Shown one piece after another: positions 38,334 to 52,961 of a DNA stretch of 64,000 nt. Where the stretch lies: the IMG/VR virus record IMGVR_UViG_3300014204_000112, positions 96,001-160,000 of that record, one strand, 5' to 3'. The notes below the pieces were generated by a model. It made no database searches, was not told the origin of the DNA, and worked only from the letters and a program-made list of their open reading frames with translations. This DNA is from a virus (lineage: Duplodnaviria > Caudoviricetes). Position numbers and translations under genes: made by a program. Positions within the stretch are counted from its first letter, which is position 1, and each line of letters opens with the position of its first letter.

Positions 38334-38513
38334 CCGGCTAACTTTTTCTTCTTATACTATGGACAGAAACAAAAGTTAGTCGGCTGATCAAATTTACCGG
38401 ATGATTATGCAATGTTGGTTGCCGAAAGAGTTACTGCAACTGGAACAGCTGTGTAAGTAGGAGTGGTGAAAGTGTAAGGTCAGCCACCGAACCTGGGTGA
38501 TAAAAAAAATTTG

Positions 38514-38586
38514 AGAGTCCTGTGGGGCTCGAACCCACGACCACGGTTTTAGAGACCGCTGCTCTAACCACTAAAGCTAAGGACTC
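38514..38586 (-). tRNA. amber suppressor tRNA (anticodon CUA)
   Basis: GAGTCCT/AGGACTC acceptor; GCGGT-CTCTAAA-ACCGT; GTTCGAG T loop. Confidence 0.85.
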
Positions 38587-45380: not shown

Positions 45381-47009
45381 TTAGATTACGATCTTACGTA
45401 CCTTGTCCAGGTGGTATGTAGGATTGAATTCGACGTTGGCGATGTCGTCGAACATCGAGAAGCCGTAACCGTAGTAGAAACGGACCTTGTCACCGATCAG
45501 CTGAGTTGTGCCGTAGGATGCCAAGTCTACAGAGTAGACGTATGGGTTTCCGACGTTCCTCAGGTAGTTCGTGTACGAAGAGTACGTGTTTCCACGGTTG
45601 CATTCGTTGTCAGAGAGGATGAACACCCTGTCGTACGCCTTTCCGGAACGTGCTGCCAGATCCCAAGCGGTGCTTAGGTTGGTTCCACCAAGGTTAGCAT
45701 TGAACGACCTTGCGATCGAGAATACGTCCTGGTTTGCGTTCCATGGGGTGAAGTGAGCGCTCGATCCGAACTGAATAACGTCAGCATTGGTTGCCTTCGC
45801 GATTGTTGCTCCGATCAAGGATGCCTTGTCAGCACATGACGTTGAGTACTGAGTCTTCCTGTTAGGGTCGACCATCTTCGTGGTCATGGATCCGGACCTG
45901 TCGATGATAACGAGGTTCCTTCCTGGCAATGCTTCCGCAAGGTTTGGAACGGATGCTTCGTAACCGATCAACAGTGCCTGTGCGATCTTCCTTCCGTCCA
46001 TCTTCGAGCCGAATTCTGCGAGCAGAATTTCGCCGGCCATGTCGATCTGGTAAGGCATGATCTTTGCCTGCCTGATAAGGTTTGGGTCCGACAGAACTGC
46101 GCACAGCTTGTCAATCGTTGCACGATCGGAGACCGTGTTCAGAATGCTCCTGATGTTACGCAGAGCTGCAAGAGTACCGAGCTTACCTTCGGTCAACAGA
46201 GCTCCCCAGTTTTCAGCCTTAGCTTCCTTGAGGATTTCTGCACCTTCAGCCTTGGTGATCTTACCTGCCTTTACGGCCTTTGCAACTTCCTGACCTGCGT
46301 CAGAGTTAGCAACTTCCCAGGTGTCGGCGGATACAGCCAAGCCCTTGATAACGGCATCGATTGCAGATACCCTTTCGCCCTTGAATTCAACGAATGCCCT
46401 CGACTGCTTTGGGTCAGGGTGAACGAGGTTGATAACGTCGATCAATGCTGACTTGTACTTCAGGATCGAGTATGCGTCGAGCCTTTCGATTGCATCAGCA
46501 AAACCCTTCTTCATAGAGTTGGTTGCCTTCGTCTTGTTCATAACCGAGAAACAGGCGATGATTTCGGCCATGTCGTCCGGACGGAAAATGGTTCCACCAG
46601 ACTGGTTCTTCTTGTTCCACAGTGAGTAGAACCTCTTCGCCCATTCGAGACCAGCGCAGTAAGGAGCGAGGTAGCTTGCTGCGAGGTGGTTGATCGACCT
46701 CATACCTTCACCAACGCAACGTGAGTACACGATGCACTGTGCGGTTAGGTAAGGATCTTCCTTTGCACAGGCAGTAACGATTCCCTTGAGTTCCCTCATG
46801 GTTTCATTTTCTGACCTGTAGAACTGGTTTTCCAGCTTCAAGGTGTTGAGCATTGTGATCAGTCTCAACCACTTGTCGATCGCATAAGCCGCGTGGCCCG
46901 AACGATTGACAGTGTTAGGCGTAGGAACTGCGTTAGCAGCTACTAACTTCGCCTTAGGTGCCGTCTTGGCAAGCTTAGTACGAAGATTTGCGTTTCTGAA
47001 CTTTGTCAT
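45381..47009 (-). CDS. Ro60/Rsr-like TROVE-domain RNA-binding protein with C-terminal vWA domain
   Basis: TVNRSGHAAY, FYRSE, GMRS, RPDD, LVHP, AALRNIR, IDRSGSM, GGT, ILSDNE, VDLASYG. Confidence 0.85.
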   Translation of the reverse strand: MTKFRNANLRTKLAKTAPKAKLVAANAVPTPNTVNRSGHAAYAIDKWLRLITMLNTLKLENQFYRSENETMRELKGIVTACAKEDPYLTAQCIVYSRCVGEGMRSINHLAASYLAPYCAGLEWAKRFYSLWNKKNQSGGTIFRPDDMAEIIACFSVMNKTKATNSMKKGFADAIERLDAYSILKYKSALIDVINLVHPDPKQSRAFVEFKGERVSAIDAVIKGLAVSADTWEVANSDAGQEVAKAVKAGKITKAEGAEILKEAKAENWGALLTEGKLGTLAALRNIRSILNTVSDRATIDKLCAVLSDPNLIRQAKIMPYQIDMAGEILLAEFGSKMDGRKIAQALLIGYEASVPNLAEALPGRNLVIIDRSGSMTTKMVDPNRKTQYSTSCADKASLIGATIAKATNADVIQFGSSAHFTPWNANQDVFSIARSFNANLGGTNLSTAWDLAARSGKAYDRVFILSDNECNRGNTYSSYTNYLRNVGNPYVYSVDLASYGTTQLIGDKVRFYYGYGFSMFDDIANVEFNPTYHLDKVRKIVI

Positions 47010-51274: not shown

Positions 51275-51724
51275 TCATGACTTCTTTCTTTTTGTATTTT
51301 TACCTGAAAAATTTGAAGTTTGGCTATGACAATTTGGGCATAGCAATTGTAAATTTTTTAATCGATGATTTTTAGAATTTCCATCTTTGTGATGTAGTTG
51401 GAGGTTAATTTCTCTGCCATTCCAGTTTGTTAGACCACATTCTTCGCATTCATCTTTTTTTATTTCTTCTTCTATTAACCTACGTTTTAGGTTTTTAGTT
51501 TGATAAGATGAATGTAGTCCATCTAAAATTTCAGAAATCGGTATTTTACCTATACCATCGATTTTTGGTTTTTTAGTGCCCTTTCCTCCTTGATTCTTTT
51601 TTAGAGGTACTGCAAAATCATTAGAGAGTTTCCATAATTGGTATCTATTGATCTTTAATAATTTAGCAGCTTCTGTTGAAGTTGGGGTTTGATGAATTGC
51701 GGCGATAAATTCAGATCTTTCCAT
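51275..51724 (-). CDS. HNH homing endonuclease
   Basis: CEECG, LQLHHKDG, NLQLLCPNCHSQT. Confidence 0.9.
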   Translation of the reverse strand: MERSEFIAAIHQTPTSTEAAKLLKINRYQLWKLSNDFAVPLKKNQGGKGTKKPKIDGIGKIPISEILDGLHSSYQTKNLKRRLIEEEIKKDECEECGLTNWNGREINLQLHHKDGNSKNHRLKNLQLLCPNCHSQTSNFSGKNTKRKKS

Positions 51725-51855: not shown

Positions 51856-51957
51856 GTGTATTGGAGCAGATTGCGAGGTCGTTAGCCACGCTCCCTCGGC
51901 TTGGTGCCGCTATGCCACACGGTTGATCAGTTTCCGTATACACCCTTTCTGCATGTG

Positions 51958-52028
51958 AGCGGATGACCAGAATTGAACTGGCGTCCGAAGCTTGGCAAGC
52001 TCCTACATTACCACTATGCTACACCCGC
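51958..52028 (-). tRNA. tRNA-Gly(GCC)
   Basis: GGAGC-TTGCCAA-GCTTC. Confidence 0.85.
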
Positions 52029-52645
52029 GATTTGATAAATTTTGTTAGAACGTCATCAAACTCTTTGCCGTCTGACCATGGTATTCTAATTACTGTAATT
52101 CCAATGGATTTTAGATAAGCGTCTCTATTTTTATCTTTCTCTTGTATTTTAGAAAATCGATGCGTTCCACCGTCTATTTCCAAATCGATTTTATCTTTTT
52201 CGAAATAAAAATCAAGAAAATACATTGTCTTTTTGCCGGTAACAGTAATTGGATATTCTTTAACAAAGTCTATGCAATTAGCGTCTTTCAATTTTCTTTC
52301 AGTATATTCTTCTGGATAACTTTGAAGATTTTTTCGAGTTTTCCAAGTTGCGTGAATTCCGTTATCAAACGCTTTTTTTGCAGATTCGCTCATTTTTAAT
52401 TTAGCTTCTTCTGTGTGAGTTTTACCTTTCATCCATGGAGAACGGCCGCTCATTAACTTTGAGGAACGCTGTAAGCTATCGTTAGTGTCCTTTGATAAAC
52501 CTTTATTCCATACAACTCTTCCATTTTTGTAACCTCGGTTTGGATCATGCGATTTACCATCTCCGTGATTTTTCCAAATATGCGTTCCTAACCCGTATCT
52601 AGAATAAGCTTTACCACAATATGGACAATTTTCGGTTTTAAGCAT
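52019..52645 (-). CDS. DUF559/Vsr-like putative homing endonuclease (NUMOD3)
   Basis: SYPE, YFLDF, LEIDGGTH, RDAYL. Confidence 0.8.
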   Translation of the reverse strand: MLKTENCPYCGKAYSRYGLGTHIWKNHGDGKSHDPNRGYKNGRVVWNKGLSKDTNDSLQRSSKLMSGRSPWMKGKTHTEEAKLKMSESAKKAFDNGIHATWKTRKNLQSYPEEYTERKLKDANCIDFVKEYPITVTGKKTMYFLDFYFEKDKIDLEIDGGTHRFSKIQEKDKNRDAYLKSIGITVIRIPWSDGKEFDDVLTKFIKSRV

Positions 52646-52689
52646 GGCGTTTTATTTTATTTATACAACGCCATGCTCTACCAGTTTAG

Positions 52690-52882
52690 TTAATCGTTTC
52701 GTAATTGGACTTCTGTTTCTCATCTAACATTTATCTTAGCCTCAACCCGACTATCATTGAATTGCTGACCTTCTAAGTCTGTTTGAGTTGCACCAATGTC
52801 GTATAACGTCTTTCGACTTCAACAACCAGCAAAGGTGGCACCAATTTCCTCAGTTTCCCGCGTTAGATACTTTCGCCTAATG
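52690..52882 (-). ncRNA. rnpB: minimal RNase P RNA (catalytic domain only)
   Basis: GAGGAAAUUGG and ACAGAAGUCCAAUUAC form a covaried P4; P2 AUCUAAC/GUUAGAU; AGAUAAAU J18/2; P6 GCUG/CAGC. Confidence 0.7.
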
Positions 52883-52885
52883 TTC

Positions 52886-52961
52886 TGGAGCTAAAGTCGA
52901 GATTCGAACTCGAGACCTTCTCAATACCAATGAGATGCTCTACCTACTGAGCTACTTCAGC
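52886..52961 (-). tRNA. tRNA-Thr(GGU)
   Basis: TCTCA-TTGGTAT-TGAGA; CCA encoded. Confidence 0.85.

Follow-up and report, generated by a model that had tools for sequence, protein, structure and literature searches.

Inside its own array of 42 tRNA genes, a large uncultured T4-like phage carries what is almost certainly a genuine, selectively maintained copy of RNase P RNA, the tRNA-trimming ribozyme, as judged from homology and from signs of selection in the sequence. The gene lies on the minus strand at 52688-52882 of the window, by which we mean the whole 64,000-nt stretch that was analysed (bases 96001-160000 of a 213,922-bp IMG/VR virus record with a CheckV completeness of 83%). At 195 nt, the RNA is about half the size of the usual RNase P RNA. 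Its architecture, as read from the sequence, is that of bacterial type A, cut down to the catalytic domain and a specificity-domain (S-domain) stub of ~39 nt.

Identification and parts of the RNA

The initial annotation of this DNA had proposed that the phage encodes a ~190-nt RNase P RNA whose specificity domain is severely cut and which lacks P18. A local-mode search with Rfam covariance models, set beforehand as the test of this proposal, gave a significant match: in a permissive scan (441 nt), the best match within the clan was to RNaseP_arch (RF00373), at 29.3 bits and E 9.3e-7. This local alignment (52710-52867) covers P2, P3, GAGGAAA, P5, P15, AGAUAAAUG and ACAGAA but passes over the specificity domain (~117 model positions). 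Together with relatives that score on RNaseP_bact_a (RF00010), the match bears out the proposal, and the E-values exclude a chance resemblance. The motifs that had been named (GAGGAAA, AAUUGG/CCAAUU, P2, P3, P5, P6, P15, AGAUAAAUG, ACAGAA and GUC-GAAA-GAC) are all present on the minus strand, where they had been placed. The Rfam gathering scores are 84 bits for RNaseP_arch and 100 bits for RNaseP_bact_a; at gathering thresholds tRNAs alone were reported, and the 195-nt RNA fell below every cut-off. Across the 213,922-bp record, RF00010 gave no match at E ≤0.001 and the type T model (RF02357) none at E up to 10. The record holds one copy of the mini RNase P RNA. The single-sequence minimum free energy fold, which was no better than shuffles (z = +1.33), was discarded as evidence; it is uninformative because P4 and P6 are pseudoknots.

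The RNA keeps the catalytic half of RNase P, namely P1-P6, P15-P17, the GGU of L15, GAGGAAA, AGAUAAAUG and ACAGAA. Its extent, from the 5' end to the 3' end of P1, is given by full-length matches to two models of the family (R1 and R2, below) and by the local RNaseP_arch match, and was checked in the sequence. Conserved regions I (GAGGAAA, 52845-52851, spanning J3/4 and the start of P4), IV (AGAUAAAUG, 52728-52736, which is AGAUGAAUG-like) and V (ACAGAA, 52711-52716) follow one another in the right order and are invariant in alignment A1; all three are also placed by the Rfam alignment. The Rfam alignment likewise places P2, in which UAUCUAAC (52862-52869) pairs with GUUAGAUG (52721-52728), and, together with covariation, the P3 hairpin CGG-GAAA-CUG (52851-52860). 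In P5, CACC (52834-52837) pairs with GGUG (52791-52794), with 100% of cells paired. The P15-P16-P17 arm (52741-52787), whose helices covary and whose P15 is formed by CUCA/UGAG, carries GGGU in L15 (52745-52748). The GGU motif of L15, which is invariant here, binds the 3' CCA of tRNA. The P6 pseudoknot is formed by UUGCUG (52827-52832) and CAGCAA (52762-52767) in the P17 loop; arm, pseudoknot and L15 GGU are thus all present, as in bacterial type A. The GCAA of J5/15 (52788-52791) is near-invariant, and across alignments A1 and A6 it belongs with L15 GGU and conserved regions I, IV and V to the elements that change little or not at all. By position, the second A of GCAA corresponds to E. coli A248, described as stacking on the +1/+72 pair of tRNA (PMC11143913).

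P1 had been taken to be not obvious. It is present, however, as CAUUAGGCG (52874-52882) opposite CGAUUAACU (52688-52696), with 6 of 9 pairs formed here and 9 of 9 in the three close relatives L019, L026 and L048 (for example AGUUAAUCG/CGAUUAACU); in the window's copy, P1 is eroded. All four unpaired cells in the alignment of this four-sequence clade sit in the window's copy, three in P1 and one in P17. P18 is absent from the 195-nt RNA; deleting P18 from the E. coli RNA is described as lowering the cleavage rate more than 3000-fold (PMC11143913).

Relatives in other phages and covariation of the fold

Relatives were first sought in viral contigs, in two scans, with a pattern on the three conserved blocks at short spacing. 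Of the 64 loci that the first of these scans returned, ~50 lacked pairing in P4 or P2 and were rejected as chance matches; once filtered for pairing in both helices, the pattern scans left some two dozen real relatives. To these, a pattern specific to the clade and a scan of metagenomes added L227 and L244 together with a sister group (L235, L238, L249, L252). The four closest sequences served to build model R1, and fourteen, the window's RNA included, to build model R2. R2 matches 29 loci at E ≤7e-9, 15 of them outside its seed (L022, L037, L063, L158, L190, L195, L197, L199, L204, L208, L223, L224, L225, L227 and L234, at 44.6-120 bits), and 27 of the 29 come from phage records or viral contigs. 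The window's RNA matches R2 over its full length (P1-P7, P15-P17 and the stub) at 183.3 bits and E 2.8e-43, a score that follows by construction because this RNA sits in the R2 seed. On RF00010, with its cut-off of 100 bits, one relative of 207 nt (L037) reaches 118.5 bits, while the RNA of Microbacterium phage A3Wally (72 bits) and that of L001 (12077-12270, minus strand; 61 bits) stay below; the Rfam cut-offs are all missed by 20 of the 21 family members scanned.

Copies in named phage genomes have gone without annotation. Among published genomes of huge phages, R1 finds the RNA in three, LR756501 (735 kb), LR756502 and LR756500, whose records carry no annotation; the paper describing these genomes does not mention RNase P. 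In the cultured phage A3Wally, the space between tRNA-Pro genes 162 and 163 is taken up exactly by a mini RNase P RNA that has no annotation (L234:1313-1533, MZ150783.1:93852-94072; R2 74.6 bits). An R2 search of five cultured tRNA-rich phages (XacN1, Atu_ph07, phiCbK, S-CRM01 and KVP40) found no copy. When the window's RNA, L001, L024 and L199 were used as blastn ('distant') queries against 50,697 phage records, only flanking tRNA was returned; blastn is too insensitive for this family. A scan of genome contigs gave, among the matches listed, one convincing hit, a 187-nt RNA without the P16/P17 arm in a metagenome-assembled genome of an uncultured archaeon (L158:496-682, CAZJHM010000011.1), which scores 111.3 bits on RNaseP_arch against a cut-off of 84. 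We rejected it as a member of the phage type: it is the archaeal genome's own, unusually short cellular P RNA.

Two further observations concern other RNAs in phage records. The locus L001, which has a mini RNase P RNA and 26 tRNA genes, also encodes a phage tmRNA (L001:6-363, minus strand; 100.8 bits), with the nearest of these genes ~7 kb off. Microcystis phage MaAM05, a cultured 274-kb cyanophage record, contains a bacterial class A RNase P RNA of full length (400 nt; L233:1462-1861, MW495066.1:115284-115683; 251.8 bits against 100), unannotated and lying between hypothetical genes. Thus, some phage records carry a full-sized RNase P RNA too.

The fold of the mini RNA is conserved in pairing while its sequence changes. 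Among the four sequences of the close clade (95% identity), 98.2% of cells are paired and six pairs have changed on both sides, including U-A to C-G and C-G to U-A changes in P2; none of 500 shuffles scored as high, and slid controls gave 20-41%. Family-wide (28 distinct sequences), 93.1% of cells are paired, compared with 61.8% in shuffles and 33-40% in slid controls, and 52 of the 58 pairs show compensatory change. The family alignment was fitted to the nested helices and therefore favours them; P4 and P6 lie outside the model, and although they do, 7 of 8 P4 pairs and all 6 P6 pairs covary family-wide.

The P4 uridine and the specificity-domain stub

P4 forms in the 195-nt RNA, though without the bulged U after the third base pair that is a hallmark of RNase P. 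Its 5' strand AAUUGG-U-GC (52838-52846) pairs with GU-CCAAUU (52703-52710) as six base pairs, the bulged U and two base pairs, a non-canonical register compared with the usual three pairs, U and five pairs. This arrangement is that of the clade of the window's RNA, L019, L026, L048, L244 and LR756500/L227. Outside it, 23 of the 29 relatives have the canonical form, AAS-U-NNNNN / NNNNN-SUU, with 7 or 8 of 8 pairs. The helix had been described as a covaried AAUUGG/CCAAUU pairing; the pairing itself holds, but covariation appears only across the wider family, P4 being invariant inside the clade, and the register had not been recognized as non-canonical.

In ViennaRNA, six pairs with the bulged U and two further pairs come to -5.9 kcal/mol, the six pairs alone to -5.4 and the canonical register to +1.2. 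The inner G.U pair of P4 is replaced by A-U in LR756500, which lends weak support to the last two pairs. A reading in which the P4 bulge is simply lost was dropped, since both the energy comparison and this replacement favour a bulge moved by 3 bp. In our model, then, the bulged uridine of the clade is shifted by three base pairs, not deleted. In E. coli, the P4 bulge U69 is described as binding a catalytic metal ion and contacting the acceptor stem (PMC11143913; PMC13254310 for U52); because of the altered register, the clade would have this metal-binding uridine displaced. The clade keeps every other helix with compensatory changes, and its RNA is therefore under selection. Blocks that are otherwise universal also vary in places: in the LR756500 relative (L225, LR756500.1:81673-81898) GAGGAAA becomes GAGAAAA and ACAGAA becomes GCAGAA, and in L235 and L238 of the sister clade ACAGAA becomes ACAAAA.

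The second unusual region lies between the strands of P5, where a full specificity domain would comprise P7-P14 and conserved regions II and III. Here the insert is ~39 nt (52795-52833), including the 5' strand of P6. The initial annotation had reduced this domain to one GUC-GAAA-GAC hairpin; the reduction and the hairpin are both confirmed, but the hairpin is not bare, since a P7-like stem and an internal loop accompany it. The core of the stub (52798-52823, minus strand), which is supported by covariation and by motif conservation in A6, lies between the strands of the P7-like stem and contains GUUG/CGAC, AAG, the hairpin (52808-52817) and, at 52801-52808, CGUUAUAC with its T-loop-like UNNNA. 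Across the family, the P6 5' strand and the P7-like stem of the stub are accompanied by a 5' side rich in purines (AAG or GAG), a hairpin whose length varies, and a 3' strand. The 3' strand follows the pattern C-G-N-U-N-N-N-A-C, with U and A almost invariant in A6; in sequence it is T-loop-like, with U as the first and A as the fifth base. For archaeal type T RNase P, models stack the single T-loop of a one-stem S-domain on the tRNA elbow (PMC13462272), and we infer by analogy that the motif in the phage stub may parallel it.

It is possible, and we suggest it tentatively, that in infected cells the RNA of the window's clade has full RNase P ribozyme activity, despite the shifted P4 bulge and with elbow recognition left to a single T-loop-like stub. 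If so, two features held to be universal or essential in RNase P RNA would be rearrangeable in nature, and the clade would have the smallest natural bacterial-type RNase P. The moved uridine also offers a natural variant for testing the role of that metal site.

Among known RNase P RNAs, bacterial type A (E. coli M1 RNA/rnpB and T. maritima; RF00010) shares with the phage RNA P1-P5, P15-P17, the P6 pseudoknot, L15 GGU, the A-rich J5/15 strand and conserved regions I, IV and V. The phage RNA differs in being about half the size (195 nt compared with a 367-position Rfam model), in lacking P8-P14, conserved region II and P18, in the 3-bp displacement of the P4 bulge in the clade and in being a phage gene that lies within a tRNA array; the window's copy, moreover, gives no RF00010 match. 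In architecture, the closest analogue appears to be archaeal type T, which likewise has ~200 nt and a type A-like catalytic domain; its S-domain of one stem with a single T-loop may have a counterpart in the reduced phage stub and its T-loop-like motif. Type T is cellular, however, and works with Pop5, Rpp30, Rpp29 and L7Ae, whereas the phage RNA gives no RF02357 match; the missing match and the different setting make the phage S-domain reduction look independent of type T. Reduced mitochondrial P RNAs have also lost S-domain helices and escaped standard covariance models. The same is described for the P12-less P RNAs of some CPR bacteria and Mycoplasma fermentans, where far less has been lost (PMC8172020). 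All of these reduced RNAs are the sole RNase P RNA of their cell or organelle, whereas the phage RNA is an extra viral copy. Engineered bacterial RNAs consisting of the C-domain only are reported to cleave pre-tRNA without an S-domain, with or without protein (refs 80-84 of PMC11143913). These are laboratory truncations with weaker substrate binding, whereas the phage RNA is natural, under selection and keeps a conserved stub.

Phage setting and proposed function

The window contains genes for a T4-type portal, a UvsW-like helicase, a family B DNA polymerase fragment and a ClpB-like ATPase, and these genes, with the IMG/VR virus record itself, support the phage origin that had been assumed. 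The closest portal in the phage collection is that of LR756500.1, an uncultured 462-kb phage (40.5% identity), followed by those of other huge phages and Lak phages. ARAGORN places all 42 tRNA genes on the minus strand, and Rfam confirms 40 of them. Immediately before the RNA, 3 nt upstream of P1, lies a tRNA-Thr(ggt) gene with an encoded CCA (52886-52961, minus strand), the same neighbour as in close relatives. On the other side, a homing-endonuclease-like ORF of 208 aa (52019-52645, minus strand), with NUMOD3 and DUF559 domains, is inserted between the RNA and tRNA-Gly(gcc) (51957-52028). L026 and L048 have no insert at this point, and the order tRNA-Thr(ggt), RNA, tRNA-Gly(gcc) recurs in L019, L026, L048 and L244. 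Spacers in the close clade measure 1-3 nt before the RNA and, in L026 and L048, 5 nt after it. As the RNA abuts tRNA genes at 1-5 nt, enzymes that cut tRNA ends could release it. More widely, 11 of 12 relatives checked have tRNA genes on the RNA's strand in the fetched locus, within ~100 nt of the RNA in 9 of these 11. The flanks of the RNA contain no sigma-70-like promoter and no intrinsic terminator. A search of the 214-kb record (83% complete) found neither RnpA (PF00825) nor a CCA-adding enzyme (PF01743); the absence of rnpA fits dependence on host RnpA.

Several other features of the array deserve mention. An 11-bp hairpin, AGCAUGGCGUU ... AACGCCAUGCU, lies at 52640-52680 (minus strand); its 3' arm holds the ATG of the 208-aa ORF, and it may restrict how far this ORF is translated from transcripts of the array. 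Another endonuclease ORF, of the HNH type, is located at 51275-51724. At the low-coordinate edge of the array, a 542-aa ORF (45381-47009, minus strand) combines TROVE and Ro60-type vWA domains. A tRNA with anticodon CUA (38513-38586, minus strand; also L024:3246-3318), called tRNA-Pyl by ARAGORN, looks like an amber suppressor; TAG may thus be a sense codon in some of the phage's genes.

What might such an RNA do? Its most likely function, which we favour with moderate confidence from sequence and context, would be the 5' processing of phage pre-tRNAs with host RnpA. The RNA is probably co-transcribed with the 42-gene array and would be freed from the transcript by tRNA-cutting enzymes, its 5' end lying 3 nt after tRNA-Thr and its 3' end, in two relatives, 5 nt before tRNA-Gly. 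It would then assemble, most likely with the host RnpA protein, into a holoenzyme that would cleave the 5' leaders of the densely packed phage pre-tRNAs, and the gain would be added tRNA-processing capacity during infection. Catalytic domains without an S-domain are described as staying active with and without protein, with weaker substrate binding (PMC11143913), and archaeal type T RNase P as working with an S-domain of one stem and a single T-loop (PMC13462272). Several sequence features nevertheless speak against pre-tRNA processing: the failure at all Rfam gathering scores, the displaced bulged U, the block changes in LR756500, the four unpaired cells in the window's copy and the lack of P18. 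So does the encoded tRNA end: all 38 tRNA genes examined (31663-63138, minus strand) encode C74, the C after the discriminator, but the full CCA that GGU would bind is encoded by 10 only.

The RNA might instead be catalytically active but cut mainly RNAs other than ordinary tRNAs, such as putative tRNA-like or Y-RNA-like elements of the array, homing-endonuclease mRNAs or host RNAs. Most of the S-domain that reads the tRNA elbow is gone, with a stub left, and a Ro60/TROVE gene stands at the edge of the array. RNase P is also described as cutting 4.5S RNA and phage C4 RNA, and the E. coli enzyme as needing no intact S-domain for pre-4.5S RNA (PMC11143913). We nevertheless consider this unlikely, as the stub keeps a T-loop-like UNNNA like that of type T, which has been modelled against the tRNA elbow (PMC13462272), the tRNA-end-binding GGU and J5/15 are conserved, and the RNA sits among canonical tRNA genes.

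Less probable again is a non-catalytic mimic, folded like the catalytic domain, that titrates host RnpA or pre-tRNAs and so redirects or damps host tRNA processing. The clade's 3-bp displacement of the P4 bulge and the changes in universal blocks (GAGAAAA and GCAGAA in LR756500, ACAAAA in L235 and L238) could be read in this way. In bacterial RNase P, moreover, as reported for the T. maritima structure, the protein-binding regions all lie within the catalytic domain, the part that the phage RNA has kept. However, the elements for docking and chemistry (L15 GGU, J5/15 GCAA, P6 and the T-loop-like stub) are invariant, the 23 relatives outside the clade keep the canonical bulged-U P4, and a phage with 42 tRNA genes gains nothing obvious from blocking tRNA maturation.

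We strongly disfavour the idea that the RNA is a decaying, functionless relic of an RNase P RNA gene captured in the tRNA array. The three mismatches in P1 and one in P17 of the window's copy, and the homing-endonuclease gene inserted just downstream, would suit such decay, but helix substitutions are compensatory even at 95% identity (six pairs), the fold is kept across 29 divergent relatives, and position and synteny are conserved. A cellular gene misjoined to a phage contig, or a chance resemblance, is the most remote of these alternatives, having in its favour nothing beyond the metagenomic origin of the assembly, whereas the same RNA, with the same tRNA genes around it, recurs in assemblies made independently from different samples (L019, L026, L048, L244), the RNA also occurs in the cultured phage genome A3Wally, the T4-type portal and other phage genes lie in the window, and the E-values exclude chance.

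In the full-text literature searched, outside subscription journals, we found no description of a virus-encoded RNase P RNA, and the reviews consulted describe RNase P RNA from cells and organelles only, with no virus-encoded copy (PMC11143913, PMC8172020, PMC13462272, PMC7162821). Standard annotation misses the gene, and both published huge-phage genomes and a cultured phage carry it without annotation. That cultured carrier, A3Wally, which grows on M. foliorum, makes bench tests practical. The phage family would be a natural experiment on how little specificity domain suffices in a bacterial setting, independent of archaeal type T, and half-sized RNase P RNAs in large phages would extend by a ribozyme the translation toolkit that phages are known to carry (tRNAs, tmRNA and synthetases).
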